From: Candidatus Enterousia sp.
GTDB lineage: Bacteria; Pseudomonadota; Alphaproteobacteria; Rs-D84
Direction: 5' to 3'
Length of the DNA stretch: 64,000 nucleotides
Assembly: GCA_045114635.1 (NCBI GenBank)
Contig: JBGUKY010000021.1
Location: 6,100 to 70,099 of the forward strand
A model generated the notes under the pieces. It did no database searches. It saw only the letters and a list, made by a program, of their open reading frames with translations, and had not been told where the DNA came from. Positions 1 through 22,712 of the stretch are shown in pieces; positions within the stretch are counted from its first letter, which is position 1, and each line of letters opens with the position of its first letter. Both the position numbers and the translations under genes were made by a program.

Positions 1-2803
1 CTTGTTTACATAAAGCAGCAGCACTATCAAGCGATGCTTTCGCATCTTGTAATTTTGCCTTTGCAGATTCAAGAGAATCTCCACCCTCGCTTTCTGCTGC
101 TGTGTTAATACTGATATCATTTATCATTTCAGCATAATTTATACAAGAAGATTTCTTTTGTTTTGCAGATGAAGAGGCACCGTTCGCAACATTTGATTTA
201 TTTAACCATTTGCCCAAAACGCCGGATTCTGTCAAACCTGTACCAATTGCACCGCCACCCAAAAGACCGGCAACCGCGCCCCATGCATATTTAGATTTTG
301 TAGATGAAGAATTCACCAAATTACCATTTGAATCACGTACTTTAAGTCCAGCATCAACCAAAGCTTGTTCGCCAACCTTTTCTGTGATTTTTTGTAATGT
401 TTTATCGTCTATCCAAGAACCACATGTGAATGCATCACCAACCGCGAAATACGCTGTTGCTTTATCACCCAAAACTTCTTGGATTGCACGATCGTCTGAT
501 GTGACTGTGATACGTGCACGACAGAACGAACCATACAAATCATTAGATGCTTTGAATTGTTTTGTGGTCAAACCTTTCATATTATAATTCTTCGGGATCT
601 TGTTAGAATTCAATTTTACCCACATGAATGTTGAACCATTTTCAGCAGCACCCATAATACCACCGTTGTTTTGAGCCAAGCACATACCTTGTTCTTTTGT
701 AAGTTTAGCATTGTATTTTGCCTGGGCTTCTTTTTCAACATCAGCCAACAATTCTTGGAACAAAGATGTTCCGGCATTATCTAATTTATAATCAGCTATG
801 TTTTGATATACAGGTGTATCATATACACATCCGTTTTCGTCCATTATACCAATACATTGACCTTCGTCACTTGGTTCTTCTTGGATTCCAGCAGGACAAT
901 CATCACTTGGATTTGATACTGTACATGCAATCAAAACTTTATCAGGATTTTCAACAAGAGTTGCTGTTGTTGAATTTGCATCTCTCCATGCGCTTCTGAC
1001 AGAAGTGTTTGCACCCCAAGAATCTGTATCTGTTGTTAATTTATTAATAGCAATCTTTAAATGTTCATTACATACAGATGAATCTTTAACAGTATTCAAG
1101 CACAAACCGATAACAATATTGTAATCAAGAACGCCACCCATTTTATTCATACTGTTATCAAATTTTGCCTGGCCAGTACTATATGTTCCAGACATAACAT
1201 CTGTTCTGTTACGATAGCAACTTTCATAATCTTTACCACACATAGATTTTACACAAGACAATGCAACTGTTTGACATTGTTTACGCATATTTTCAATTGC
1301 GGCATCATTATAAGATGTTGCCAATGTTGCATTCAAAGATGCGATTACACCAATTGGATCCGCAGATACGCTTGAATCTTCTGGATAAAGTGTTGTGAAA
1401 ACACTGTTTTCATCATTCATATATCCAGCAAACAAACTACCCTGACTTAAAACTGCTGCATATTGGCAGTTCGCATCTGTATCTACAATAGCACGACAAG
1501 CAGATCTTACTTCTTTATAAGATTTAGGTGCCTTGGTAATATTGACTTCACCTGTGGAAGCATCACGAGATTGCGAATAACAAACAGATCCGATACCACC
1601 ACCGCAAGAACGCATAGCACAAGATGAAATTGTATCAATACACTTATCTTGAACCTTGGCATCAAATTTATCTGTTATTTGATTTATTTTATCTTTCAAT
1701 GCAGTAAAACGTCCAAATTCACCATTGTACATATCATCGAACACTTCACTTACATTATCAGGATCTGTCAAAACAGATTCTTTTGTAACCGGTTTTGCCT
1801 TTACAGTCATATAACAATATCTGTTTGAACCGATTGTTTGCTGGCATTCTTGACGGATATAGTTCGCAACTTCGCGTTTTGTTGTGATTTGAGAAATTTC
1901 CATTAAATCTTGTGCTGTCACAGCACGACCACCATTAGTTGCATCAGCAATTCTTATCAAGATTTCAGGACGATCTTCAATACATTTGTTTGGATTTTTC
2001 GAACAAGCATTCAAAATACATTGATCTGTAACCTTGTTACATGTAGCAACAGCATTATTTACAGCCAACGCAGCGCCTTCTGTAATCATTTCAGACAATC
2101 TTGAACCGCTTGCAGGTTGTAAAGACGACGCAGCAGCTGTTGATCCGAACAATTCTGTTTTTCCAGCAACTTGACAACGTGCTAATGTTGAATCACAAGA
2201 CAAAGCTTGTTTTTTGAATTCTTTTGGATCTGTACACAATTCAAAATCTTGGCCACAGATACTTTCTTTGTGTAAACAGGATGTGTATTTTTTAACACAT
2301 TGGTCTGTATCCAAACGATTTTCAATTTGAGCCGCTGTTATCATCTGCCCCAAAACACTGCTTGCTGTTGGGTATGTATATGCAGTGATTTCGCCATTTG
2401 AATCTGTTGTTGCAGATGTTGCAATTGCGTTCAAATCATACGACCCAAACAAAGAGGCACGACCAGCGTTGCTACATTGTGACAAAACATTCAAACATGT
2501 TGGCGTTTTAGCGTGTAACAATATTGTGTTTGTACATTCTTCAAATTCAGAACCGCAAGCATCATTACCCTTGATACAAGCCGAATAGTTATCGATACAA
2601 TCAACGTCTGCCAAATATGTTGTGGAAGTTCCGTTAATAACCGAAGACGTTGTACCGCCTGTGACCGAAGTAATATATCCGGCAATTGACGGTAAACGCG
2701 GCGTTGCCTTTGCCACCATGCTTACGCGTGATGTAGCCGCCATTGCCCCTGGAATCACGGCAAAAATTGACAATAAACCTAATGCTTTGACGATGTTCTT
2801 CAT
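1..2803 (-). CDS. Very large cysteine-rich tandem-repeat secreted/surface protein, partial (>930 aa; C-terminus lies beyond the window start).
   Basis: I read the reverse strand by hand from an ATG at 2803-2801: MKNIVKALGLLSIFAVIPGAMAATS..., a typical Sec signal peptide. The frame stays open to position 1. No competing ORF >100 aa exists on either strand across 1000-2400 in the supplied track, which appears to omit ORFs that run off the window edge. Internal ~50 aa repeats are visible: CIDNYSACIKGNDACGSEFEECTN...CLNVLSQCSNAGRASLFG versus CVKKYTSCLHKESICGQDFELCTD...CDSTLARCQVAGKTELFG. Near the C-terminal end there is a glycine-zipper hydrophobic segment, AWGAVAGLLGGGAIGTGL. The track ORF 2634..2816(-) is a different frame overlapping this start. 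Confidence 0.6.
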   Translation of the reverse strand, partial: MKNIVKALGLLSIFAVIPGAMAATSRVSMVAKATPRLPSIAGYITSVTGGTTSSVINGTSTTYLADVDCIDNYSACIKGNDACGSEFEECTNTILLHAKTPTCLNVLSQCSNAGRASLFGSYDLNAIATSATTDSNGEITAYTYPTASSVLGQMITAAQIENRLDTDQCVKKYTSCLHKESICGQDFELCTDPKEFKKQALSCDSTLARCQVAGKTELFGSTAAASSLQPASGSRLSEMITEGAALAVNNAVATCNKVTDQCILNACSKNPNKCIEDRPEILIRIADATNGGRAVTAQDLMEISQITTKREVANYIRQECQQTIGSNRYCYMTVKAKPVTKESVLTDPDNVSEVFDDMYNGEFGRFTALKDKINQITDKFDAKVQDKCIDTISSCAMRSCGGGIGSVCYSQSRDASTGEVNITKAPKSYKEVRSACRAIVDTDANCQYAAVLSQGSLFAGYMNDENSVFTTLYPEDSSVSADPIGVIASLNATLATSYNDAAIENMRKQCQTVALSCVKSMCGKDYESCYRNRTDVMSGTYSTGQAKFDNSMNKMGGVLDYNIVIGLCLNTVKDSSVCNEHLKIAINKLTTDTDSWGANTSVRSAWRDANSTTATLVENPDKVLIACTVSNPSDDCPAGIQEEPSDEGQCIGIMDENGCVYDTPVYQNIADYKLDNAGTSLFQELLADVEKEAQAKYNAKLTKEQGMCLAQNNGGIMGAAENGSTFMWVKLNSNKIPKNYNMKGLTTKQFKASNDLYGSFCRARITVTSDDRAIQEVLGDKATAYFAVGDAFTCGSWIDDKTLQKITEKVGEQALVDAGLKVRDSNGNLVNSSSTKSKYAWGAVAGLLGGGAIGTGLTESGVLGKWLNKSNVANGASSSAKQKKSSCINYAEMINDISINTAAESEGGDSLESAKAKLQDAKASLDSAAALCKQ

Positions 2804-2889
2804 CCCCTTTCTCCATTTTACTTTGTATTTATTCTATCATAACAAGCAAAATAATGAAAGCGAAAAATGAAGCGTTTTGTGATTATTTT

Positions 2890-3849
2890 TTATTGGTTAT
2901 CAAGAATTTCTTTCAATTCAATCATATCATCTGGCATATGTGCTTTAAAGTGCATTTTTTCACCGGTTATTGGGTGCATAAACTCCAAGATTTCAGCATG
3001 TAACATTTGACCGTTATGTTCGCGCAAAAAATCAAGCAATTCTGGGTCTTTTACGGATCCAATATGCCCCTTTTCACGACCATAAAGTGGGTCACATAAA
3101 ACAGGGAATCCATGTGACGACAAATGAACCCTTATTTGATGGGTTCGTCCGGTCATAAGAGTACAACGAAACATCGAAATACCTGGGCGGGTCCAAACAT
3201 CCATAACATTGACAATTGTATGTGCTGGTTTGCCACCCGTTTTTACCAATGACATTTTTTGTCTATTTCGTGATGAACGAGCAATATTTCCAGTTATTTC
3301 AGCCCCACCCCAAGTTGGAACACCCCAAACAAAAGCAACATATTTACGGGTTAAATCGTGCGCAGAAAAAATCTTTACAAGTCCGCGATATGCGGCATCG
3401 CTTTTCGCAAAAACCATCGCACCACTTGTGTCTTTATCAAGACGATGAACGACCCCGGGCCTTGTTTGGCCACCCAACGCAGACAAATGGGTATAAGCCA
3501 ACAGGTTTTGAACCAATGTCCCTGTTTTATTTCCAGCACTTGGGTACATAACAACACCGCGTGGCTTGTTAATCACAATAATATCATCGTCTTCGTATAA
3601 AATTTCCAAATCAAAATCACTGCTGATATTATCATATGCCACATCAGTCTTTTTTTCAGCAATTTCTACAACAAATTCGTCATTTAATTTTGTTTTTTCA
3701 GACAATTTTAATGGGCGACCGTCAGTGCGATCTATTTTGAATTTTTGAATTTCACTGCGCGAATATTCAGGCATAGAGATTGACAAAAACTTATCAATTC
3801 TTATTCCCACATTTTCTTCATTAACCAAAAATTTTTTGATATCAGCCAT
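2890..3849 (-). CDS. rluD: 23S rRNA pseudouridine synthase, RluA family (RluD-like) with N-terminal S4 domain.
   Basis: Catalytic motif HRLDKDTSGAMVFAK; S4-like N-terminus (IRIDKFLS); 319 aa, the typical RluD size. Confidence 0.75.
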   Translation of the reverse strand: MADIKKFLVNEENVGIRIDKFLSISMPEYSRSEIQKFKIDRTDGRPLKLSEKTKLNDEFVVEIAEKKTDVAYDNISSDFDLEILYEDDDIIVINKPRGVVMYPSAGNKTGTLVQNLLAYTHLSALGGQTRPGVVHRLDKDTSGAMVFAKSDAAYRGLVKIFSAHDLTRKYVAFVWGVPTWGGAEITGNIARSSRNRQKMSLVKTGGKPAHTIVNVMDVWTRPGISMFRCTLMTGRTHQIRVHLSSHGFPVLCDPLYGREKGHIGSVKDPELLDFLREHNGQMLHAEILEFMHPITGEKMHFKAHMPDDMIELKEILDNQ

Positions 3850-4331
3850 TATCTATATTCTGTCCATTTTGGACCTTGTTCACACTTTGAAATATCAATC
3901 GTAAAGTTACGTTTTCCTTCTACTGGACAAGTCAAAATCCCGGTCGAACGAGCCTGGGTTGCATCTTCTGTTGCATTACGCCACGCAAAAGAAATTGTGT
4001 CTGGTTTATAAACACAGACTATACGTAAATGTCCTGACATTTTTCCATTTGGTGACAACCATACACGAACACTGTCTGATTCGCCATAACAAGGAAAAGA
4101 ATCAAGGTAATATAATACCAGACCTTCTTTAACAAGAGATTTATCTGTCCCCTTGATTGTTCCGGTATATTGGTTAAGTTGCAACCCTGTTACCGCAGCC
4201 CAATCAACAGTCGTTGAAAACACGCTTACGCGTTGAACTGGTGCCGGTGCTGGTGGTGGCGGCGTTGACTGTGTATCTGCAAATGCAGCAACACAAAACA
4301 AAGATAAAAATATTATGAAAATATTCTTCAT
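3849..4331 (-). CDS. Small secreted protein with a Pro-rich linker (hypothetical).
   Basis: Signal peptide MKNIFIIFLSLFCVAAFA followed by TPPPPAPAP and a Cys-containing beta-rich region. Start codon overlaps the rluD stop and the ZitP-like gene end, so it looks co-transcribed. Confidence 0.45.
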   Translation of the reverse strand: MKNIFIIFLSLFCVAAFADTQSTPPPPAPAPVQRVSVFSTTVDWAAVTGLQLNQYTGTIKGTDKSLVKEGLVLYYLDSFPCYGESDSVRVWLSPNGKMSGHLRIVCVYKPDTISFAWRNATEDATQARSTGILTCPVEGKRNFTIDISKCEQGPKWTEYR

Positions 4332-4837
4332 TTCGATTCCTTTAATTCAACAGACAATCTTTTAACATTTGTCGGATCAACTGATAACATATGGTTAAAT
4401 GTAACTGTTGTTTTTGATTCAAGCAATGTTGCCGGTGGCATAAAAGTTTGTCGGGACAAAACATTACCCATCGCATCATAGGAAATAATTATTATATTTG
4501 GCAAACCATATATTTCATCTGTTGTATTGGTGATATTACCAGATACAAATATACGATTGTTTCCATTTTCATCCAATACAGTATGTATATTTTTCTCATC
4601 TATCTTTGTAATCAAAGGTTGGCTTTTTTTCATACCAGAAAAATTCATGACAACCACAAAAGAAAATATACAAGCTGCGATAAAAGCACAAACCGCCGCA
4701 ATAAATTTTATCATTGTTTTGTGCTGAAACGGAACCCGTGGTGTCCAAACATGCCCACACACAGCGCACTTCACAGGTGTCGTTGGTGCATGTTCTAAAT
4801 TGTATTCTGTTTTACAAAAATTACATACTATCTTCAT
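4328..4837 (-). CDS. ZitP-like protein: N-terminal MJ0042-type zinc-ribbon, one TM helix, C-terminal DUF3426-like domain.
   Basis: N-terminus MKIVCNFCKTEYNLEHAPTTPVKCAVCGHVW (CxxC...CxxC zinc ribbon). Then TM segment FIAAVCAFIAACIFSFVVV and a ~100 aa beta-rich C-terminal domain. This architecture matches Caulobacter ZitP and its alphaproteobacterial homologues, which control polar pilus biogenesis. Confidence 0.55.
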   Translation of the reverse strand: MKIVCNFCKTEYNLEHAPTTPVKCAVCGHVWTPRVPFQHKTMIKFIAAVCAFIAACIFSFVVVMNFSGMKKSQPLITKIDEKNIHTVLDENGNNRIFVSGNITNTTDEIYGLPNIIIISYDAMGNVLSRQTFMPPATLLESKTTVTFNHMLSVDPTNVKRLSVELKESK

Positions 4838-4874
4838 AAATGAACTCCGTATGATATTTTTATACCATAAATTA

Positions 4875-6203
4875 TTATAAATTCAACATTTCATATTTAG
4901 CACGTATTTGTGTCTGCATATTATTTATCGCATTTATATAATCAGCAACTGTCGCATTCACATTGGCAGAAACCCCACCAAATATTGTTGTCGCAACAGT
5001 TCCTTGATTTGATTCTTGTGCCATTATAATTGAAGCCATACGTGAAAGTTCTGGGGAATTTATATCAACAAAACGTGCCTTACTGTTTTTAATATCCCAA
5101 TAATAAGAGGAATCTTTTGAATCTTGAATTTTATCTGAAATATGTAGTTGTGGTGTCACAGACCCAGTATAACCAACAGATACATATGTCGCATTTATAC
5201 TACCTAAAATTAAATCCATGTCACCTATAATTTTTAACGAAGAAGATTTTCCAGAAGTGTTTGAAACACTAAAACCACTTAAAGTTAAAGTGTTTACATA
5301 CAAATCATTTGTAGAAAAAGAAGAAAATTTTGCCGAATCTGCCAAAGTCAATGTTCCATTGACATTCAGATTCCGAGAATCCGCAGTTAAAGCACCGTTT
5401 ACAACGGCTATATTTGTTGAATATACCGCATCTATGGTTGAACGATTTGCAAAAACTAATGTGGATACATCCAATTTGCCGATTTTTAATTTTTCTTCAA
5501 ATTGTGCTTTATATGCATCTACAAAGCGAATATTTTTTATATCATGTCCATCTAAATTCAAGGCTGATTGCATTGTCGCATCGTCTTCATTTTCTGACGG
5601 CAGTCTCCATAAATATTCTGTATTACCACGTTTTATATTTGTCGTTCCAACCAAACCTTTGGTGTTTGACAAACCAAAATCAGCCGCCGAAGAACGAAAG
5701 GCCCCAAAACCACCGTATGTCACATTACCTTCAACGAAACCAAATTTGCCACCACCCAAGTTAACTATTTCACGTGTACGCATTGGGGATATATCACTAT
5801 TTGTCAAAAGCACTATACCTTGTAACACAGAATTATTTTTATTATCCGAAGATTTCAAAACACGCAGCTGATAATCATCACCATATGTATCAGCAATATA
5901 TTCTGGCAACCCATAATTTATTAAATCATTGATTTTAATATGGGTTATGTTTTTACCCTTTGGACGCATCAGTTCAGTTTTATTTTCAACAATATATCTT
6001 TCAAGTGCATTTTGAACCCTTTCCATTTGTTTTGTTATCGCAACATTTCTTGCACGCAAAACTGCGGTTTGTTGATATCTGAAAACAAACGGTATAATTA
6101 TTGCAGCCAGCGCAACGGTCATCATCAATTCAACAAGCATTCCACCGCGTTGCATATTTTTACGAAAAAGATTCAGTGTTCTCGTCATTATTTCGTATGC
6201 CAA
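4875..6203 (-). CDS. Large type IV pilin-like / pseudopilin-like protein with a class-III signal peptide.
   Basis: MQRGG|MLVELMMTVALAAIIIPFVF: Gly, then a hydrophobic helix with Glu close to +5. The true start may be the internal Met at ~6155, giving a short MQRGG leader like those of the neighbouring genes. Rest of the 442 aa protein is beta-rich and Ser/Thr/Asn-rich. Confidence 0.5.
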   Translation of the reverse strand: MAYEIMTRTLNLFRKNMQRGGMLVELMMTVALAAIIIPFVFRYQQTAVLRARNVAITKQMERVQNALERYIVENKTELMRPKGKNITHIKINDLINYGLPEYIADTYGDDYQLRVLKSSDNKNNSVLQGIVLLTNSDISPMRTREIVNLGGGKFGFVEGNVTYGGFGAFRSSAADFGLSNTKGLVGTTNIKRGNTEYLWRLPSENEDDATMQSALNLDGHDIKNIRFVDAYKAQFEEKLKIGKLDVSTLVFANRSTIDAVYSTNIAVVNGALTADSRNLNVNGTLTLADSAKFSSFSTNDLYVNTLTLSGFSVSNTSGKSSSLKIIGDMDLILGSINATYVSVGYTGSVTPQLHISDKIQDSKDSSYYWDIKNSKARFVDINSPELSRMASIIMAQESNQGTVATTIFGGVSANVNATVADYINAINNMQTQIRAKYEMLNL

Positions 6204-7393
6204 TTTTGTTTTATTATTTTGTTAAATTCATCGGCATCTGGAACTGGTGGAACAGATGCGCGTGTCAAAGTCAATTTTGAAAAAGAAGGTGGTGTCAAAG
6301 AAGGAAACGACCAATTACCTATTTTCAAAGGTGCAACGCCTGCCAACAATAATTCACCAGAAACAGTTATGCCAAAGTTTTCAAAAAACACTAAATCTGT
6401 TGCCGATAAATATGGCGTCAAAAGTTTATTCATAGATATACCACTAAAACCAGAAACACTTCTACCACTTGAAGATTTCAAAATTAAATTACCAGCAACA
6501 TTGACAGAGTTTCCAATTGTTGCTCTATCCACTATCAGTTTACCGTTTGTTGTATATTTATCGTCGTTTAACACTTTCGCTTTGATAAGTCTAAAACCAC
6601 TTGTATCACCCGTCACACGCATAGAAGAAAATGTTATGCTTTCTGAATTCATGTTTGCCCCAGAAGAAAAATATACATTGTTTGCATCAACAACATCTGA
6701 TTCAAGAAACACTGCATCAACATCTATAATTTTAGCAGACAAACCATCAACTTTGGCCGCATTAAATACATTAAAATTATTCATATGTAAGTCACGATTC
6801 ATTTGATTCAAAGCATCTTCGCCCATTGTGCCACGATGCAAGAACCTTGATTTATCTGCCCCTTCAAAATCATGCGATACTCTGAAAATTAAATCACCAA
6901 CATTAAAATCTTCTGGTGCAGACACAGCCCAACTTTGTGAATAGGCGATACCGTCTTCACGTACAACCGCAGCATCTTCACCAATTTGTTTTGCGATATT
7001 TGCCGCTCTGTAATCAGATTTTCCCATATCAAAAGCCAAATAAACATCGCTTATGGACGCACCGTTTACTTTATATCTGTCAATATACCCACTATGAGCA
7101 TCAGCAGATATTTTCTTTAAATCTTCATCAGATAATTTTATTTCTGTTGTATCTTTCCATTGACCTTGATTTACACGAATATAATTTACAACAACATCTC
7201 GTATTTTTACTATTTCATTTGCATGCGCGATATCTTCTGATTCATTAGACATTTCTATAATTTGATTGTACATAAAAGGCGATATAGCAATCACAACAGC
7301 CACAGCCAAAATAACTTCGGTCAATGTTGCACCGTATTGCGAAAACGCGTTTAATCTTTCAAAATATTTTTTACATACAATCACTGCGCCCAC
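6188..7393 (-). CDS. Large type IV pilin-like / pseudopilin-like protein with a class-III signal peptide (long leader).
   Basis: ...FSQYG|ATLTEVILAVAVVIAISPF: Gly, Glu at +5, ~20 aa hydrophobic helix. 401 aa. Overlaps its neighbours, consistent with an operon. Confidence 0.5.
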   Translation of the reverse strand: MGAVIVCKKYFERLNAFSQYGATLTEVILAVAVVIAISPFMYNQIIEMSNESEDIAHANEIVKIRDVVVNYIRVNQGQWKDTTEIKLSDEDLKKISADAHSGYIDRYKVNGASISDVYLAFDMGKSDYRAANIAKQIGEDAAVVREDGIAYSQSWAVSAPEDFNVGDLIFRVSHDFEGADKSRFLHRGTMGEDALNQMNRDLHMNNFNVFNAAKVDGLSAKIIDVDAVFLESDVVDANNVYFSSGANMNSESITFSSMRVTGDTSGFRLIKAKVLNDDKYTTNGKLIVDRATIGNSVNVAGNLILKSSSGRSVSGFSGISMNKLLTPYLSATDLVFFENFGITVSGELLLAGVAPLKIGNWSFPSLTPPSFSKLTLTRASVPPVPDADEFNKIIKQNWHTK

Positions 7394-8723
7394 TCTCTAA
7401 ACATTGTTTTATATTTATTCTTGATTCCAATCTTTGCCAAAAAACATATTGGCATATTATATTTTGTGCCAAGGATTTACTATTATAAGCGACATCCATT
7501 TGATTGATTATATCTTTACAAGAAACTTTTTTGCCTGTTGTATCTTTTGGGTCTGCAATAATTTCAAAAGAATCATTATTTATTCCGTCAACATAAGCAT
7601 CCGGCAAAAGTGTTGTTCCTGCAGGTCTTATATCAATCAATAATGGTCCAGATTGACCATCTAATAATCCATACGAAGTTTGATCACGCAACGATATATT
7701 TGCAGCATATATATTTTTTACATCAACACCTTTTTTGGTGGTATAGGTTAGGCTTTCCGGATCAATATAAACATCTTGTCCACGCGACGCATCCAAAAAA
7801 GAACCGATATCTAATCTATCAACATTAAAACTAAAATTATCAGCACGTACAGCGCCACGAACCAGCCAATCAGAAGGCCCATCAAACCCCGTTCTGCCTT
7901 CGGACATAGAAAAGTCATATACAGACGCAACCTCAGATTCAAACCCACCTGTCGTTCCAAATCTGGAAATAGTACGCAAAGATGCAGACGATGTATTTAT
8001 TTCACCACGCGAAAGAGACAAAGCAGCACCACCATCAGCGCTTTGAAACACCGTTTTATTCGCGTACAAATCTGAAATTTTGTTTTTATCTTTTCTACTT
8101 TCTTCTACACCATAAAGCGACAAAGTAGTAAATTGCGCACTTTCAAATTCACCATTACGCGCAAACAAAACACCTATCTTGTCCACACTTTTTTCATTCA
8201 TATCAAGTTCAGACAAAAAACCGACATTTTCACCTGTTTCTTTTTTTGAAACTATATCGCTGTACATTTCATCAAGCGGTATATCAACTTCGATATTGCT
8301 TCCATTGATCTTTGCATAAAAACCTATTCTTCGCGCCAATTCTGCAAGTTGTATTTTCGACAATTTTCCACTTGTAACATTTATAAAACCGTAAAGCCCG
8401 TCTTCACTTTTGTTGATAATCAAAGATATGTTTTGGTTAAAATGTGTTCTTGGACTAAACCCAAGTGGCAATCCATAATTTTCTAATACTTCTACAAAAT
8501 CTTCTTTGCTCAACTCTTGTTTTTTATACGGCAAATTTTCTTTTTCTTCACGCAAATAAATACGTGCAGCCGATTGTGCCATTTCAATTTGTTCTGTAAC
8601 GGCATACATTTGGGCAGCCATGTCGCGTGATGAAATACGCCGCGCAAAAAAAGGCATAAAAGCAAAAACCAATGTCAATGCTAATAACGCTTGTAACAAA
8701 AAATTACCTGTCTGTTTTTGCAA
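7371..8723 (-). CDS. Large pseudopilin-like protein (GspK/PilX-like: prepilin-type N-terminus but no Glu+5).
   Basis: MQKQTG|NFLLQALLALTLVFAFMPFF, then a 450 aa beta-rich protein with four Cys near the C-terminus. First gene of the minus-strand operon. Confidence 0.4.
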   Translation of the reverse strand: MQKQTGNFLLQALLALTLVFAFMPFFARRISSRDMAAQMYAVTEQIEMAQSAARIYLREEKENLPYKKQELSKEDFVEVLENYGLPLGFSPRTHFNQNISLIINKSEDGLYGFINVTSGKLSKIQLAELARRIGFYAKINGSNIEVDIPLDEMYSDIVSKKETGENVGFLSELDMNEKSVDKIGVLFARNGEFESAQFTTLSLYGVEESRKDKNKISDLYANKTVFQSADGGAALSLSRGEINTSSASLRTISRFGTTGGFESEVASVYDFSMSEGRTGFDGPSDWLVRGAVRADNFSFNVDRLDIGSFLDASRGQDVYIDPESLTYTTKKGVDVKNIYAANISLRDQTSYGLLDGQSGPLLIDIRPAGTTLLPDAYVDGINNDSFEIIADPKDTTGKKVSCKDIINQMDVAYNSKSLAQNIICQYVFWQRLESRINIKQCLESGRSDCM

Positions 8724-8874
8724 AAGCCCCCTCCTACAACCTAAAGCATAGCAATTGAAAAAAATTATTGCAATCAGTTTTAAGATGCTTTAATATTTAA
8801 ATCGTTGAAGAACAAACGGTAAAAATGATTACTGTTTGAAAAGTTTATTTCCTTGAAAAATAAAAAGAAAGAAT

Positions 8875-9192
8875 ATGCCAAACAAAAAAAATCAAACCTC
8901 TGTGGGTCAGATGATTCAACGCTGTCATAAATGGCGTCAAAAAAGAAAACAATATATTGACTTGGCTCGCCAAACAAGTGATGAGATTGAACGCGAACGC
9001 CTTCTTCAAACGGCTGAACATTATGGTCGTATTGTTAATGAAGAACAGGTCAAAATTGATTCTCAGCGCGACCCTAAGGACAAAACGCCAATTCCAGAAG
9101 AAATCGCCGAAGCATCTGAAAATAACGAACAAAACGATGCAAGTGACGATGAAGAAATTGGATTTCCAGATTTTATTACAAATTTGAAATAA
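8875..9192 (+). CDS. DUF4167-family protein (alphaproteobacterial, basic N-terminus).
   Basis: Motif ...DLARQTSDEIERERLLQTAEHYGRIV matches the conserved DUF4167 core (..LARDA...ENYLQHAEHYFRI..). Acidic C-terminal tail. Sits immediately upstream of dnaX. Confidence 0.5.
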   Translation: MPNKKNQTSVGQMIQRCHKWRQKRKQYIDLARQTSDEIERERLLQTAEHYGRIVNEEQVKIDSQRDPKDKTPIPEEIAEASENNEQNDASDDEEIGFPDFITNLK

Positions 9193-9231
9193 TCCGGCCT
9201 CTTTTTTATTGAAATCGTATATTTATTTGCT

Positions 9232-10785
9232 ATGCTTTCCCCTAAAGGAAGCACTATGGATACTAATTATACGGTTTTAGCACGAAAATACAGAAGTCAG
9301 GACTTTGAATCTCTTATTGGTCAAGACGTTTTAGTCAAAACATTAACCACCGCTATTAATACTGGTCGTATTGCACATGCGTACATTTTTACGGGTATTC
9401 GTGGAACTGGAAAAACCAGTACTGCGCGTATTTTAGCCAAGGCATTAAACTGTTTATCTTCTGATCACGCAACAGCAAAACCATGTGGTGTTTGCGAAAA
9501 CTGTCGCGCTATTGCAGCCGGACAACACATTGATGTTATGGAAATTGACGCTGCTTCCCATACAGGTGTTGATAATATGCGTGAAATATTGGACGCAGCA
9601 CTTTACCGTCCAACAAATGCGCGTTACAAAGTTTATATTATCGACGAAGTTCATATGTTATCCACCAGCGCTTTTAACGCGTTGCTTAAAACATTGGAAG
9701 AACCACCTGCACACGTAATATTTATTTTAGCAACAACAGAAATAAGAAAAGTTCCTGTGACCATATTATCACGTTGCCAACGTTTTGATTTGGCACGTGT
9801 ACCTGTTGAAACATTAAAGAAACATTTCGCATGGGTTGCAGAACAAGAAAAGATTGAATTATCAGATGGCGCAAATGAATTATTGGCACGTGCTGCCGAT
9901 GGCTCTGTTCGTGACGGACTTTCACTTCTTGATCAAGCCATCGCTCAAACAGGTGGTCATGTTGATGAAGGCGCTGTTCTTGATATGTTAAAAAGAACAG
10001 ATCGTGGCACAGTTGTTAATTTTATGAAAATTGTTTTATCTGGTGATGTTAATGCTGCATTAAATAAATTAGATGAAATATATAACAATGGCGCAGATTT
10101 GACTATGTTGTTAAATGACATGATGGAATGGACGCATTGGGCAACACGCATGTATCCATCGCTTCGCTTACAAGATGTAACATCTTCACCATATACAGCA
10201 GATCAACGTGAAACCATTCGCAAAATTAACGAAAACATTTCACTTAATACACTTTCACGTATTTGGCAGGTTATGGTTGCATCTGTTTCTGAATTACAGG
10301 CATCTGGTAATCAAAAACAATGTTTTGATATGCTGATTGTTCGTTTGATGCATATTGCAGACATGCCATCAATTCCTGAATTATTAAAACAAGATCAACC
10401 TGCACCGGCAAAAGCAGAGGCAAAACCAGCACCAGAAAAATCAAAAGCCGCGAAAATAAGTACTTCTGACGAATTGGCGACCGCTTTACAAAAAGATCGC
10501 GAATTGTTGTTATATTCTTACTACACAACAAATCTTGAAATAACAGAATTTGAAAATGGAAAAATAAAATATTTTGATCGCAAAGGCGACAAAGATTTTT
10601 CAAACAAACTGGCTTTGTGGTTAAAAGAAAAAACCGGTAAAAATTGGAACCTTGAATTGATTCAAGAAGCACCACACCAACAAACATTGTCAGAACACAC
10701 AAAATCTGAAATTGAATCTGATCCAATGGTGGCAAGTGCAATGGACTTATTCGAAGGCGCAGAAATTGTGAACATATCTAAATAA
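9232..10785 (+). CDS. dnaX: DNA polymerase III subunit gamma/tau.
   Basis: AAA+ Walker A GIRGTGKTS; zinc module CGVCENC; sensor motifs; 517 aa. Confidence 0.92.
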   Translation: MLSPKGSTMDTNYTVLARKYRSQDFESLIGQDVLVKTLTTAINTGRIAHAYIFTGIRGTGKTSTARILAKALNCLSSDHATAKPCGVCENCRAIAAGQHIDVMEIDAASHTGVDNMREILDAALYRPTNARYKVYIIDEVHMLSTSAFNALLKTLEEPPAHVIFILATTEIRKVPVTILSRCQRFDLARVPVETLKKHFAWVAEQEKIELSDGANELLARAADGSVRDGLSLLDQAIAQTGGHVDEGAVLDMLKRTDRGTVVNFMKIVLSGDVNAALNKLDEIYNNGADLTMLLNDMMEWTHWATRMYPSLRLQDVTSSPYTADQRETIRKINENISLNTLSRIWQVMVASVSELQASGNQKQCFDMLIVRLMHIADMPSIPELLKQDQPAPAKAEAKPAPEKSKAAKISTSDELATALQKDRELLLYSYYTTNLEITEFENGKIKYFDRKGDKDFSNKLALWLKEKTGKNWNLELIQEAPHQQTLSEHTKSEIESDPMVASAMDLFEGAEIVNISK

Positions 10786-10801: not shown

Positions 10802-11257
10802 ATGAGGGAACAATCAGGACGTTCATTGATAGAAATTATCGGCGTACTTGCTATTGGCGCAATTATGGTTTCTGGAACTTATGCGATATATAATTCTACA
10901 AATGCAAAACAAAAAAGATTGATCGCATCAAGTGAATTGGAAAACATTGCAACAAAAACAAAAACACTTCTGGAATATTCTGGTTATATACCTGTATCTG
11001 TTGATTTCTTGATTGAATCTGGCGCGCTATCCAGCGACAAAGCCCCAGCAGGAAGTCAAGATTGGTCGATCACAAGTAATTTTGATGGTACAGAATTTTC
11101 AATCAATTTATCTGGGTTGAGTTTTGATGAATGTGCATATTTCACAACAAAAAAATTTGATTGGACAACACATATAAGCGTTAATGGGTATGACACAAAG
11201 GAAACATCATATTGTCTTAAAACAGGTGACAACAAAATATCATTTTTTGCTAAATAA
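10802..11257 (+). CDS. Type IVa pilin-like protein (prepilin).
   Basis: MREQSG|RSLIEIIGVLAIGAIMVSG: textbook class-III signal with Glu+5. C-terminal Cys pair (ECAYF...SYC) typical of the disulfide-bonded D-region. RBS AGGGGGAC 6 nt after the dnaX stop and no terminator between them. Confidence 0.65.
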   Translation: MREQSGRSLIEIIGVLAIGAIMVSGTYAIYNSTNAKQKRLIASSELENIATKTKTLLEYSGYIPVSVDFLIESGALSSDKAPAGSQDWSITSNFDGTEFSINLSGLSFDECAYFTTKKFDWTTHISVNGYDTKETSYCLKTGDNKISFFAK

Positions 11258-11260
11258 AAT

Positions 11261-11935
11261 ATGAAATTATTAAATTTTGTTTTTGTCAGTTTATGTTTGT
11301 CTGGGTGTTTACAATACCACAGCCCATCACACGACATGTGGAACAAATATCTATACGGCGCAAGTTTTACAGATATGACAGAAACATCACGCACTGCTAA
11401 AATGCCTGTGTATATGGGACGTGGTGGCAAGATTATAACACAAACAGGTGAATTATCTGAAAAAATGCAATATGGTGACAAAAACGCGATAGATAATACA
11501 GTATTGATAAATTATATGGCTAATCTGGAATACGAATTATACGATGCATTGCGCAAACCAGGTCTTTCTGTTCAGCGGGCAGGTACAGATGTTGTTGTAA
11601 TTTTGGTACGCGACAGTATTATGGATCAATCTGTCGCAGACATATCAAGTGACGGCGCAGATACACTTAAAACAATTTCAAAAATATTAAATAAATACAA
11701 TGCAACATTTATGGAAATTGCAGGATATACGGATTCTATGAAAAACAAAAACGCATCATACGCATTATCTTTGGACATGGCAGAACGTGTCGGTGTATAT
11801 TTTTCACAACACAACATTTCAACATCACGTATGTTCATCGTGGGACGTGGCGCGGCACGACCAATTGCTGCCCAAGATGACATTGGCCGTTTAACAAACC
11901 GTCGTGTTGAAATAAGATTGACTCCGGCACGATAA
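11261..11935 (+). CDS. OmpA/MotB-family lipoprotein.
   Basis: Lipobox LSGC at the N-terminus. C-terminal OmpA-like peptidoglycan-binding domain (IAGYTDS...NASYALSLDMAERV...RRVEIRL). Starts 4 nt after the pilin-like gene. Confidence 0.65.
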   Translation: MKLLNFVFVSLCLSGCLQYHSPSHDMWNKYLYGASFTDMTETSRTAKMPVYMGRGGKIITQTGELSEKMQYGDKNAIDNTVLINYMANLEYELYDALRKPGLSVQRAGTDVVVILVRDSIMDQSVADISSDGADTLKTISKILNKYNATFMEIAGYTDSMKNKNASYALSLDMAERVGVYFSQHNISTSRMFIVGRGAARPIAAQDDIGRLTNRRVEIRLTPAR

Positions 11936-12007: not shown

Positions 12008-12667
12008 ATGAAAAAAACAACTGAATTAAACCCAATTTTGAAAAAATATTCTAAACAAGGCATTATTGCTGTTTCTGTTATAGTTGTTGCATTGATTGGT
12101 ATTTTTGCAATATCTGCTATATCACGTAATGTAAGCACAGAAAAAGCAATCGCAGAAGTTTCAACTAATGCCGCAAATGCTGCTGATTTACGTATTGCTG
12201 TTATCAGCATGGAAAAGATACAAATGGAAGCAAAAGTTTTAGAAGATTTACATAAACAACGTGCTTCTTTTGAAAACAAATTAAAAACAAAACTTGAAAA
12301 AGAACAGAAAGCAATCGAAAAAGAAAAAGCAGATATTGAAAAATCTCAAGACGTTTTATCGCAAGAAGCATTGCAACGTCGTGTTGTAGATTATCAACGT
12401 CGCGTAACTGAATTCCAACGTCACTTATCAGAAAGCGCACAATCAATCGAAGCATCATATCAAGACGCTTTACAAACAATCCAAAAGAAACATCTTGATC
12501 CTGTTATTCAAGGTATCATCGCAAAGAAAAAATTGTCTTTGGTAATTGATGGCCGTATGGCACGTATGGGTGACAATGTTAAAGATCTTGATATCACAGA
12601 TGAAGTTGTAAAAGCATTGAACAAAAAAGTTTCATCTGTAAAAATGGCATCACCAAAAGGTTTATAA
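12008..12667 (+). CDS. OmpH/Skp-like periplasmic chaperone.
   Basis: N-terminal anchor/signal, long coiled-coil region, C-terminal ...LDITDEVVKALNKK typical of the OmpH family. Confidence 0.45.
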   Translation: MKKTTELNPILKKYSKQGIIAVSVIVVALIGIFAISAISRNVSTEKAIAEVSTNAANAADLRIAVISMEKIQMEAKVLEDLHKQRASFENKLKTKLEKEQKAIEKEKADIEKSQDVLSQEALQRRVVDYQRRVTEFQRHLSESAQSIEASYQDALQTIQKKHLDPVIQGIIAKKKLSLVIDGRMARMGDNVKDLDITDEVVKALNKKVSSVKMASPKGL

Positions 12668-20837: not shown

Positions 20838-21940
20838 AAACAATACTTTTTAATTTGAACGATTCAGAACTTGAACAATTTGTACAAGAATTGGGACAGC
20901 CACGCTTTCGTGCTAAACAAATTCGTGAATGGTTAAACAGGGGTGCACCTGATTTTTCACATATGAAAAACCTGCCCGAAGATTTACGAAATAAATTAAA
21001 CGAAGTCGCCGAAACATTGCCATTAAAAATCGTTAAAAAACTGGAAAGCAGTGACAATCAAACAACCAAGTTTTTGTTGGAACTAAATGATGGAGAACAA
21101 ATAGAATGTGTTTTGATGCGCACAACATACGGCAACAGTGTTTGTGTTTCTTCCCAGGCCGGATGCGCGATGGGATGCAAGTTCTGCGCTTCAACATTAC
21201 TTGGCCTTAAACGTAATTTAACTGTCAATGAAATGTTTTCGCAACTTTTGGTTGCTCAATGGGAATTACGTGGTGATAAATTAGATAAAAAAGATATTCA
21301 TCCAAACGGTGACGCCAATAATGGTGACGTGTCGCATATTGTTGTTATGGGAACCGGCGAACCATTACAAAACACAGAAAACGTTATTGGATTTTTGGAA
21401 CGCGCAAACAGCGAATTAAATATATCTTGGCGCCGCATTACTGTTTCAACATGCGGAATTGTTCCGGGCATAAATGAATTGAATAAGTGGGGACGTCCTA
21501 TCAATCTGGCTATATCACTGCACGCCCCAACAGACGAATTACGAAGCCAAATTATGCCAATCAATAATAAATATAAATTACAAGAGGTTTTAGACGCTGC
21601 ATTCGCGTTTTCAGACACGCACAATCGCCAATTAATGATTGAATATATACTTCTTGGCAAAAAAGACGAAAATGGTGATACAGTGCTTTATAATGCAACA
21701 AATGAATATGCTGAAAAATTGGTCGAATTATTACACGGCCATAATGTTATGGTTAATTTGATACCATGGAACAGTGTGGATGAACGCGATTTCGCATCAC
21801 TTTCCGGAAATGCAGTTCACAGATTCCAAGATATTTTGATTAAAAACGGTATTCATACAAGGATCAGACGTGAAAGGGGGGCTGATATCGGTTCTGCGTG
21901 TGGACAATTAAGATTGAAAAACGCACGGGATAAAAAATGA
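20834..21940 (+). CDS. rlmN: 23S rRNA (A2503-C2)/tRNA methyltransferase RlmN, radical SAM.
   Basis: CAMGCKFC radical-SAM motif; RlmN-type N-terminus; 368 aa. Confidence 0.9.
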   Translation: MKTILFNLNDSELEQFVQELGQPRFRAKQIREWLNRGAPDFSHMKNLPEDLRNKLNEVAETLPLKIVKKLESSDNQTTKFLLELNDGEQIECVLMRTTYGNSVCVSSQAGCAMGCKFCASTLLGLKRNLTVNEMFSQLLVAQWELRGDKLDKKDIHPNGDANNGDVSHIVVMGTGEPLQNTENVIGFLERANSELNISWRRITVSTCGIVPGINELNKWGRPINLAISLHAPTDELRSQIMPINNKYKLQEVLDAAFAFSDTHNRQLMIEYILLGKKDENGDTVLYNATNEYAEKLVELLHGHNVMVNLIPWNSVDERDFASLSGNAVHRFQDILIKNGIHTRIRRERGADIGSACGQLRLKNARDKK

Positions 21941-22686
21941 AATTACGATACATAACATGTTCTGATCCACGCGAACATAATTCGATAAAATCTATTATAT
22001 CACTGGCACGTTTACCACATGCTGAAATTGCTGTCCAATGCCACCCAAGCAAAATGTCCAAGGGTATGCCACGCAACATTTGGTTTAATGAATTATTACG
22101 TGAAGTAAATCAAACATCACGCGTAAGTTTGGCAATACATATAAACAATGAATGGTCCAATGATATTTGTACACGTGGTATTATTCCAGATATTATACTT
22201 GACTGGCTAAAAATCGAAAAACAACATAACAAACCACTTATTAAACGTGTCCAATTAAATATGTCTAAAAACACAGCAGATAATATAAATACAGATGCGT
22301 TGCGTGGTGTATTATATGATTTTCATCATACCGAGTTTATATTTCAATATAACGACAAAACGAAAGATGCGATTGAAAAACTACATAAATCATACGCAAA
22401 GTTTTCAATTCTTTTTGATGCATCTGGCGGCAATGGTATAAGCCCGCAAAATTGGCAAAAACCACCATATGAAAATCATCCAATTGGATACAGTGGTGGA
22501 ATATCACCAGATAATGTTATACGCAACCTCGATAAAATAAATGAAGTTGCTGGCGATCGTGAAATATGGATAGATGCCGAAGGCAAGCTTAAATCACAAA
22601 CATTATTCGAAGACAAGGCATTATTTGATGCAGACACCGCACGCGCATATGTTCGCCGCGCAAATATATGGCAAAGACAGCATTAA
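21937..22686 (+). CDS. Hypothetical protein; C-terminus weakly resembles a TrpF-like (PRAI) TIM-barrel.
   Basis: FDASGGNGISP...GYSGGISPDNV resembles the D.GGTG...LAGGL.P.NV phosphate-binding motifs of PRAI. Start overlaps the rlmN stop (ATGA). Confidence 0.25.
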   Translation: MKLRYITCSDPREHNSIKSIISLARLPHAEIAVQCHPSKMSKGMPRNIWFNELLREVNQTSRVSLAIHINNEWSNDICTRGIIPDIILDWLKIEKQHNKPLIKRVQLNMSKNTADNINTDALRGVLYDFHHTEFIFQYNDKTKDAIEKLHKSYAKFSILFDASGGNGISPQNWQKPPYENHPIGYSGGISPDNVIRNLDKINEVAGDREIWIDAEGKLKSQTLFEDKALFDADTARAYVRRANIWQRQH

Positions 22687-22688
22687 AA

Positions 22689-22712
22689 AAAACCGCTGAA
22701 ACGGCGGTTTTT
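22689..22712. terminator. Bidirectional intrinsic terminator.
   Basis: ACCGCTGAAACGGCGGT hairpin with flanking A-run and T-run. Confidence 0.5.

Follow-up and report, generated by a model that had tools for sequence, protein, structure and literature searches.

A cysteine-rich gene at the left edge of the window

We analysed a 64-kb stretch of DNA (hereafter the window; 64,000 nucleotides, positions 6,100 to 70,099 of contig JBGUKY010000021.1, assembly GCA_045114635.1) from Candidatus Enterousia sp., a member of the alphaproteobacterial Rs-D84 lineage. At its left edge, on the minus strand, lies the 5' 2.8 kb of a gene for a large cysteine-rich protein, predicted to belong to the cell envelope (1..2803, amino acids (aa) 1–934). 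Here we describe this gene and its distribution, the repeat structure and cysteine framework of its product, and an internal cassette with defined breakpoints. Two features are new: cysteine parity is even on both sides of a pair of hydrophobic segments, H1 and H2, and the cassette between them is hypervariable, with breakpoints at the segment edges.

As the first-pass annotation of this DNA had proposed, the frame starts at ATG 2803 and stays open down to nucleotide (nt) 2, giving 934 codons without a stop. A GGAG Shine–Dalgarno sequence (2811..2814, minus strand) is read in the upstream sequence, 8 nt from the ATG. Extension beyond the left edge, through a search of 5.8 billion proteins, recovered the full-length product, P0001, which is 1063 aa long and 100% identical over the part held by the window; the last 129 codons of its gene lie outside. 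No recorded contig matched P0001 in an exact-sequence look-up. Residue numbers below follow P0001. When the gene was compared with three orthologues, substitutions at codon positions 1, 2 and 3 numbered 143, 109 and 362 (L006), 167, 128 and 370, and 195, 153 and 406, respectively; position 3 differences were 2.5–3.3 times more common than those at the other codon positions. Because substitutions concentrate at codon position 3, we conclude that the frame is under coding selection. Neither an internal stop nor a lack of coding support, which the first-pass annotation had named as grounds for abandoning the gene, was found. A promoter and terminator scan of positions 1–9300 gave no enrichment over shuffled sequences.

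Signal peptide and cysteine modules of the body

The protein begins with a typical Sec/signal peptidase I signal peptide, in agreement with the initial description, and this signal is conserved across the family. It spans aa 1–22 (2738..2803, minus strand, as are all features of the gene), reaches a hydropathy peak of 2.01 and is predicted to be cleaved after A-M-A, between A-x-A and ATSR. No lipobox occurs in the 182 family N-termini that we examined; Cys residues of the signal peptides sit in the h-region, upstream of the A-x-A site, and were rejected as lipobox candidates.

To describe what follows the signal, we used an AlphaFold2 model built from 70 homologues, with a mean predicted local distance difference test (pLDDT) score of 72 and scores of 80–90 in domain cores. 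The mature protein opens with a conserved peptide, ATSRVS...PRLPSIAG (aa 23–42, 2678..2737), with a column identity of 0.78, which is modelled as disordered (pLDDT <40). Its motif, [AST]-x-R-[PV]-[SA]-[VMI]-x(3-14)-R-x-P-[STV], is retained in the most distant homologues and, when sought in the other open reading frames (ORFs) of nine loci, was present in this family alone. This peptide may be a docking motif for another envelope machine. A variable Ser/Thr-rich linker comes next (aa 43–62, 2618..2677; identity 0.50, pLDDT ~30).

Two related cysteine modules begin the folded part. A-module 1 (aa 63–120, 2444..2617) is a helix-loop-helix unit with the pattern C-x6-C-x6-C-x6-C-x12-C-x6-C ... LFG, and A-module 2 (aa 163–220, 2144..2317) is its diverged duplicate (HHalign probability 99%, E=4e-18). 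These are six-Cys units of ~60 aa with a period of 100 aa, identical at 19 of 71 positions (27%); their six-Cys spacing occurred 0 times in 20,000 shuffles, and no tandem repeat was found at the DNA level. The first-pass annotation had described tandem repeats of ~50 aa, giving five residues between the second and third Cys. That interval is in fact six, and the repeat claim is borne out for the two A-modules, which are true copies; they do not form an array, so that "tandem repeat" overstates the case.

Later Cys clusters are patterned differently. B-module 1 (aa 245–335, 1799..2071) is helical and reads C-x6-C-x4-C-x6-C ... C-x9-C, with every Cys invariant; B-module 2 (aa 378–455, 1439..1672) reads C-x6-C-x4-C-x7-C ... 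C-x9-C; and B-module 3 (aa 500–588, 1040..1306), again C-x6-C-x4-C-x6-C ... C-x9-C, has an identity of 0.79–0.88 and is one of the two best-conserved stretches in the protein. The three share their Cys pattern and predicted secondary structure. HHalign found no significant similarity of the B-modules to the A-modules or to one another, and we therefore do not class them as repeats of the A-modules. The body continues with a beta-hairpin region (aa 620–668, 800..946; C-x8-C ... C-x8-C) and closes with a conserved alpha/beta domain (aa 669–838, 290..799) that contains invariant Cys 708, 761 and 794 and has no fold relative.

A hypervariable cassette between two hydrophobic segments

The alpha/beta domain is followed by H1 (aa 839–860, 224..289), a glycine-zipper-like segment of 26% Gly that forms the left boundary of the cassette, with the breakpoint exactly at its end. 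Within it, AWGAVAGLLGGGAIGTGL (aa 840–857) is the glycine-zipper segment noted at the first pass. What had been taken there for a coiled-coil-like tail proved to be the first half of an internal, hypervariable helical cassette and not the end of the protein. The window holds the first 74 aa (aa 861–934, 2..223) of this cassette, which is helical, contains Cys pairs and runs on to about aa 995. Beyond it, outside the window, are H2 (aa 996–1019), the second hydrophobic segment, and a conserved 44-aa C-terminal tail (aa 1020–1063), which carries the signature W-x-x-E-[IV]-G-E-H-I-Q-C-Y...G-x-Y-G-D and one Cys and is modelled as a helix plus a beta-hairpin (pLDDT 78–88).

Both hydrophobic segments are conserved, rich in Gly, Ala and Thr, and borderline in hydrophobicity (mean peak Kyte–Doolittle values of 1.23 for H1 and 1.53 for H2). 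Among 118 full-length homologues, a small-xxx-small pattern is present in H1 of 82 and in H2 of 90, and the strict GxxxGxxxG form in only 36 and 14, respectively. Column identity is ~0.7–0.8 in H1, H2 and the tail and falls to 0.09–0.44 between H1 and H2, where insertions of up to 175 alignment columns occur.

The variation of the cassette is abrupt. In pairs of these 118 homologues that are at least 97% identical over aa 63–840, the cassettes are on average 55% identical, with a minimum of 12%, and H2 plus the tail 89%. For P0042 and P0046 the values are 99.1% for the body, 12% for the cassette and 100% for H2 plus the tail, and the sequences switch exactly after GLGLTE and before AARIAVPIA. 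The corresponding contigs, L091 and L092, are 98.6% identical in DNA over 4.5 kb up to the last H1 codon and 99.1% identical over 6.4 kb downstream from the first H2 codons; between H1 and H2, 300–324 nt show no blastn similarity. Up to four unrelated cassette types occur within a species-level lineage (body at least 95% identical), and a few cassettes are common to different lineages, for example a cassette that is 100% identical between proteins whose bodies are 89% identical. Silent donor copies of the cassette were not found within 20–64 kb in the window, L001 and L004. These comparisons amount to allelic exchange of the cassette by recombination in the conserved flanks that code for H1 and H2. 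Such a pattern is expected for a part of the cell that is selected on by an external agent.

Two known classes of variable protein were considered and rejected. A polymorphic toxin of the CdiA/Rhs type does not fit an internal variable region that is followed by the conserved H2 and tail, nor does a toxin with a co-varying immunity gene fit a downstream 6.4 kb that is 99.1% identical between strains with different cassettes. As for the target of a diversity-generating retroelement, cassettes differ in length (99–267 aa) and retain no DNA similarity; a second copy of the cassette is absent within 20–64 kb, and no reverse transcriptase is found among the annotated neighbours in L091 and L092.

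Cysteine parity on both sides of H1 and H2

P0001 contains 42 Cys, most of them invariant, and nearly every Cys is invariant in the 70 homologues. We counted the residues by region in these 70 sequences, taking aa 23–840 as the body, the H1–H2 interval and the tail separately. The body count is odd throughout, at 37 or 39 Cys. The tail holds exactly one in 69 of 70 sequences, and the sum of body and tail is even in 69 of 70. Between H1 and H2 there are four, six or eight Cys, an even number in 69 of 70 sequences despite a length range of 99–267 aa and a lack of sequence conservation. In 16 sequences the cassette has six Cys, a number at odds with Zn(Cys)4 sites.

Counts of this kind suggest structural disulfides in the body and the cassette alike, the pairing being read from the numbers only. 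Since body and tail Cys sum to an even number, the tail would fold back onto the body; it would share a compartment with the body and is probably linked to it. Likewise, since the cassette Cys are even in number, the cassette would also lie in an oxidising compartment.

Two extra body Cys (39 versus 37) are present in 42 of the 70 homologues, just before H1 (P0001 aa ~815–835). Among the sequences inspected they mostly form a mini-loop, L-C-x-x-G-Y-G-x-W-x(3-6)-C. Cys residues thus seem to be gained in pairs, as disulfide bookkeeping would have it.

Distribution of the family

Every source labels this protein "hypothetical". Profile searches of Pfam, NCBIfam and PDB with the protein, its C-terminus, distant homologues and long-cassette variants returned nothing (best PDB E=0.16), and a Foldseek search against PDB gave no match better than E=0.25. 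The lone sub-threshold match, to MccV (P0015, E=0.0017), was set aside as a product of Gly/Ala-rich composition. Among 1.84 billion cluster representatives, searched exhaustively by profile, there were only 259 matches at E<=0.001, and relatives turned up in 247 stretches when each GTDB species was scanned through a single genome. All 247 carriers are uncultured gut, rumen or faecal Alphaproteobacteria, many of them named Candidatus Enterousia; the most distant members come from metagenome-assembled genomes of Alphaproteobacteria and "Rickettsiales". This is a genuine, unannotated protein family that is restricted to the Rs-D84/Ca. Enterousia lineage and found across its searched members. Genomes of this lineage have been reported to be smaller than 1 Mb and to encode no flagella, tricarboxylic acid cycle, respiratory chains or standard transporters, and the organisms have been proposed to depend on a partner (PMC12306168).

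Genomic neighbourhood

Immediately upstream of the gene, and on the same strand, is a block of genes with overlapping or tight junctions, so that the location given at the first pass, downstream of pilin-like and ZitP-like genes and rluD, was correct. An rluD-like pseudouridine synthase gene of housekeeping type (2890..3849) is followed in the upstream direction by a gene for a 160-aa exported protein of no family with four Cys after its signal peptide (3849..4331), a gene for a 169-aa protein of ZitP-like architecture (4328..4837), which overlaps the former by 4 nt, and genes for three large pilin-like proteins of 442, 401 and 450 aa (4875..8723). The 169-aa protein has an N-terminal MJ0042-type Zn ribbon, one transmembrane segment and a C-terminal FxLYD domain (NCBIfam E=1.2e-6), and gave no DUF3426 match. 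All of these genes, the pilin-like proteins as possible partners included, are linked to the cysteine-rich gene by synteny only.

The pilin-like proteins are paralogues (HHalign 97.6% and 91.9%), and all three have a class III signal with G(-1), E/Q(+5), a hydrophobic N-terminal helix and Pro(+18). Within their families G20/E25 are invariant (442 aa), G21/E26 are at least 90% conserved (401 aa) and G6/Q11 are conserved (450 aa). A weak match to geopilin PilA-N (E=0.025) was their only Pfam or PDB relative, and Pfam N_methyl gave no match at E<=0.1. Together they might make up a heterotrimeric minor-pilin "tip" comparable to the Kil Tips of Myxococcus (PMC12075869).

In 68–71 of 80 species loci the trio, ZitP-like, 160-aa and rluD block lies upstream of the gene, the trio itself in 68–69. 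Pilin-like homologues were not found within 10 kb in six loci (L003 and L086–L090), and the block is not among the called genes of L091 and L092, where SPOR and TatA genes lie upstream. Relatives from termite guts have the gene beside ftsQ and ftsA, YbeY/Lnt or the gene for a LysM protein. A different arrangement is found in a distant lineage, in L087 (13832–16862) and L090 (13561–16591), where a TcpQ-like gene (Pfam E=7.7e-18), a secretin gene and a 141-aa ORF come after the homologue; at least some relatives therefore encode outer-membrane components of the type IVb (T4b) kind. Pfam searches of window ORFs of at least 100 aa detected no pilus motor, platform, prepilin peptidase, secretin, type II secretion system or Dsb gene; other ORFs of this size are housekeeping genes, envelope-biogenesis genes or without a family match.

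Initially we read lpxD as a conserved neighbour, which was rejected on finding it downstream in only 22 of 80 loci. Two alternative conserved contexts could be distinguished: the pilin-like block, rluD and the gene, with or without lpxD, in the window, L001 and L004; and SPOR, TatA, the gene, lpxD, DnaJ-like, XerD-like, LptFG, GreA and MutL in L003, L091 and L092. Adjacency to lpxD spans both. In Proteobacteria, bamA-skp-lpxD usually lies close to such a position.

A smaller pilin-like gene is present at 10802–11257 (plus strand). Its 151-aa product, with the sequence G|RSLIE and a sub-threshold Pfam N_methyl match (E=0.0032), is a candidate for a major pilin or a pseudopilin; any assembly genes are far away. 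The gene is directly followed by an OmpA-family ORF (11261–11935), which has an LSGC lipobox-like motif in its N-terminus, and by Skp/OmpH (12008–12667).

Proposed topology and role

We tentatively propose that a conserved, disulfide-stapled periplasmic body displays a recombination-swapped helical hairpin at the cell surface, for contact or recognition under diversifying selection. We rate this proposal a little short of an even chance; the estimate covers the whole chain of reasoning, of which the disulfides, compartments, outer-membrane span and function are the inferred parts. The protein would be exported by Sec and its signal cleaved, leaving the ~780-aa body of helical modules and alpha/beta domain hidden in the periplasm. 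By way of H1 and H2 the chain would enter or cross the outer membrane and come back, probably as part of an oligomer, with the cassette exposed at the surface and the tail returning to the body. Phages, host antibodies or partner specificity would impose diversifying selection on the exposed tip, and the protein would most likely be what a partner-dependent bacterium uses for contact and recognition at its surface. Through its N-terminal peptide it may attach to another envelope machine. We arrive at a periplasmic body, surface cassette and returning tail because the body is near-invariant (aa 63–840 are ~99% conserved between strains), the cassette is hypervariable and Cys are paired on both sides of H1 and H2. 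A domain, two-helix, domain arrangement is known from the antenna projection of VirB10. Glycine-zipper helices within the outer membrane have been reported for SlyB and YfgH, as predicted from Pfam and AlphaFold3 (bioRxiv 10.64898/2025.12.22.696046).

Several points weigh against this proposal. Alpha-helical outer-membrane spans are rare, and hydrophobic segments that follow a Sec signal usually stop in the inner membrane, where the 24-residue hydrophobic H2 could stop transfer. Cassette-side flanks have net charges of +1.0 and +1.25 versus +0.6 and +0.06, which weakly favours a cytoplasmic loop; these positive-inside differences are too small to settle the topology. In the AlphaFold2 model, H1 and the greater part of H2 are coil of low confidence. 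How the disulfides pair and how the tail packs on the body is deduced from counts only, and a function in adhesion or recognition only from the variability pattern and the proposed lifestyle. Finally, no Dsb-type oxidoreductase or VKOR was seen in the 64-kb window, and with the lineage reported to have no respiratory chains (PMC12306168) no oxidant for a 42-Cys protein is evident.

In its most far-reaching form, the proposal would define a new type of surface display, in which a heavily disulfide-stapled periplasmic body uses two glycine-zipper helices, probably joined in an oligomeric alpha-helical span, to thread a swappable, disulfide-stapled helical hairpin through the outer membrane, and so provides obligately partner-dependent gut Alphaproteobacteria with a strain-specific contact organ. 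We consider this form possible but doubtful. If true, it would imply an unknown route to extensive periplasmic disulfides in an anaerobe without a respiratory chain.

The main rival places the cassette in the cytoplasm: H1 would act as a stop-transfer segment in the inner membrane and H2 would re-insert, with body and tail in the periplasm, so that the protein would serve as a scaffold in the periplasm or as a tether across the envelope, with a cytoplasmic linker that could vary freely. Hydrophobic segments after a Sec signal take this course by default, H2 reaches a peak hydropathy of 1.8–1.9 in some members, the cassette-side flanks are slightly more positive, and the parity of body plus tail Cys is satisfied equally well. 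Surroundings rich in envelope genes in several lineages (lpxD, SPOR, TatA, ftsQA, LptFG) are also in keeping with it. However, H1 is only weakly hydrophobic (mean peak 1.23, 26% Gly), and an even number of cassette Cys in 69 of 70 sequences, despite total sequence turnover, is hard to account for in a reducing cytoplasm. Relaxed constraint, moreover, cannot give 12% identity in the cassette versus 99% in the flanks with exact breakpoints; recombination is needed, together with selection by something that sees the cassette. On balance we regard a cytoplasmic cassette as unlikely.

A type IV filament offers another route to the surface, one that we hold to be distinctly unlikely. The N-terminal peptide and linker would dock onto a complex of the three pilin-like proteins and the whole protein would be exported through a secretin, as with TcpF and CofJ, which dock onto the minor-pilin trimers of TcpB and CofB (PMC9565799). 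The conserved disordered peptide does begin at mature residue +1 or +2, and N-terminal docking signals have a precedent in T4b pili (PMC9565799), as do disulfide-rich minor-pilin "Tip" complexes encoded by three genes in Tad pili (PMC12075869); these published cases make a filament link mechanistically plausible. The trio upstream in 68–69 of 80 species, the TcpQ-like and secretin genes that adjoin a homologue in a distant lineage and the small pilin-like gene at 10802–11257 point the same way. Linkage to the trio, however, is limited to a clade that generally keeps its gene order, with the housekeeping rluD interposed, and the block is absent beside the gene in L003 and L086–L090 and uncalled in L091 and L092. 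No ATPase, platform, peptidase or secretin gene occurs in the window, and a survey that noted type IV pili genes for UBA9783 made no mention of them for Rs-D84 (PMC12306168). In addition, the N-terminal motif has no counterpart of the aromatic residue on which TcpF and CofJ critically depend, the presence of two hydrophobic segments does not suit a soluble cargo, and a body that is invariant between strains is unexpected in a fully exposed adhesin. Type IV filament association is therefore a lead and not a finding, resting on synteny within one clade.

The first-pass suggestion of a surface adhesin or a filament-associated protein is accordingly compatible with our results and not demonstrated by them. 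Export, paired conserved Cys and the variable cassette speak for it, as do the pilin-like block in 68–71 of 80 species and the TcpQ-like and secretin adjacency in one distant lineage. The gene-order, missing-block and missing-machinery arguments given above speak against it, and the ~99% conserved body (aa 63–840) behaves like a hidden part and not like an exposed adhesin.

An effector that is released or presented at a contact site, with H1 and H2 inserting as a two-pass hairpin in a partner or host membrane in the manner of Tir or a translocator, is very improbable. A helical hairpin flanked by two hydrophobic segments, the partner-dependent lifestyle proposed for the lineage (PMC12306168) and weak, non-significant structural echoes of the helical proteins IpaD, XaxA and MakB would suit it, but none of those fold matches rises above noise, the gene has no linked secretion system, and the adjacent downstream genes are 99% conserved and include no cognate variable partner. 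Body plus tail parity, too, suggests a compact fold with a returning tail and not a membrane-embedded C-terminus. Finally, there is practically no chance that the locus holds no gene at all, that is, a chance open frame, a pseudogene or an assembly artefact: such a reading has in its favour nothing but absence from the first-stage ORF track, which leaves out edge-cut ORFs, and it is refuted by 934 stop-free codons, the Shine–Dalgarno sequence, the third-position substitution bias, full-length homologues in 247 species genomes and the invariant Cys framework.

Comparison with known systems

The closest analogues of the protein as proposed are CagY/VirB10, variable surface proteins of the flagellin and pilin type, and glycine-zipper lipoproteins of the outer membrane. 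In VirB10, a periplasmic domain sends two helices to the outer membrane with a surface loop between them, and the chain then returns to the domain; the proposed arrangement of body, H1/H2, cassette and tail would follow the same topological logic. CagY has regularly spaced Cys in alpha-helical repeats and flanking putative transmembrane segments (PMC2581425), and one report describes its variation as recombination-driven under immune pressure (PMC5954226). Unlike either, the cysteine-rich protein has a cleavable A-x-A signal instead of an N-terminal cytoplasmic tail and inner-membrane anchor, and its gene lies outside any type IV secretion system cluster, among rluD, pilin-like, lpxD, SPOR and TatA genes. 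It further differs from CagY in varying by replacement of a unique cassette and not by reshuffling of DNA repeats. Membership of the VirB10/TrbI family was rejected, as no C-terminal TrbI/VirB10 beta-barrel domain (PF03743) was found.

Flagellin, the D-region of type IV pilins and porin loops all have conserved ends that flank a surface-exposed hypervariable region exchanged by recombination. The swap behaviour of the cassette matches that pattern, whereas there is no relationship to these proteins in sequence or fold, and the variable part lies between hydrophobic segments and keeps paired Cys. With SlyB, YfgH, OsmB and the Rickettsia 17-kDa antigen the protein shares Gly/Ala-rich hydrophobic segments of the small-xxx-small type, and SlyB/YfgH-type segments have been reported to be outer-membrane alpha-helices that drive oligomerisation (bioRxiv 10.64898/2025.12.22.696046). 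In contrast to these lipoproteins, however, H1 and H2 are 100–270 aa apart and form no tight hairpin, and the cysteine-rich protein is ~10 times larger. It was not assigned to the Glycine zipper 2TM or Rick_17kDa_Anti families, having no Pfam glycine-zipper match and no lipobox.

In TcpF and CofJ a flexible peptide at the mature N-terminus is the docking signal for minor pilins (PMC9565799); the candidate docking peptide of the cysteine-rich protein is reminiscent of it, as is the position of the gene beside pilin-like or TcpQ/secretin genes. There is no homology, the key aromatic residue is missing from the conserved disordered peptide, hydrophobic anchors are present, the protein is 4–5 times larger, and TcpQ and secretin genes are adjacent only in L087 and L090. 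Exported proteins with helical repeat modules stapled by disulfides are also found in the Helicobacter Hcp (Sel1-like) proteins (PMC2581425), from which the cysteine-rich protein differs in its twin C-x6-C and C-x9-C spacings and in having just two true repeats. We rejected the Sel1-like/Hcp family, there being no Sel1 or TPR match and only two related modules at a 100-aa spacing; a PilY1/PilC tip adhesin, with no Pfam match for a beta-propeller and a largely helical AlphaFold2 model; and an autotransporter or beta-barrel outer-membrane protein, with no Pfam barrel and a C-terminus of a helix and one beta-hairpin that ends in ...FTIDE, ...IELD or ...IEIK.

Significance of the family and further observations

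Ca. Enterousia and its Rs-D84 relatives are widespread and uncultured in human, livestock and termite guts, with genomes below 1 Mb and no obvious nutrient transporters. A 3.2-kb gene that is retained in 247 species with such tiny genomes must be important, and its swapped cassette marks the part of the cell that is most plausibly seen by phages, antibodies or partner cells. Strains could be typed by it, antibodies or enrichment probes could be directed at it, and it is a candidate for the recognition step of a partner-dependent life. Biochemically, 42 mostly invariant Cys pose a puzzle, since DsbB is normally driven by the respiratory chain, which the organism is reported to lack. Neither Pfam nor NCBIfam has a model for the family, which deserves one.

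Two further sets of proteins were seen in passing. Between rlmN and PNPase, in surroundings that are otherwise fully annotatable as housekeeping, the window holds a 677-aa ORF (22711–24744, minus strand) and a 249-aa ORF (21937–22686, plus strand), neither with a Pfam family. In a termite-gut relative, L086:18493–21573 encodes a 1026-aa protein that has only a faint FlgK-N match and is a candidate large envelope or surface protein.

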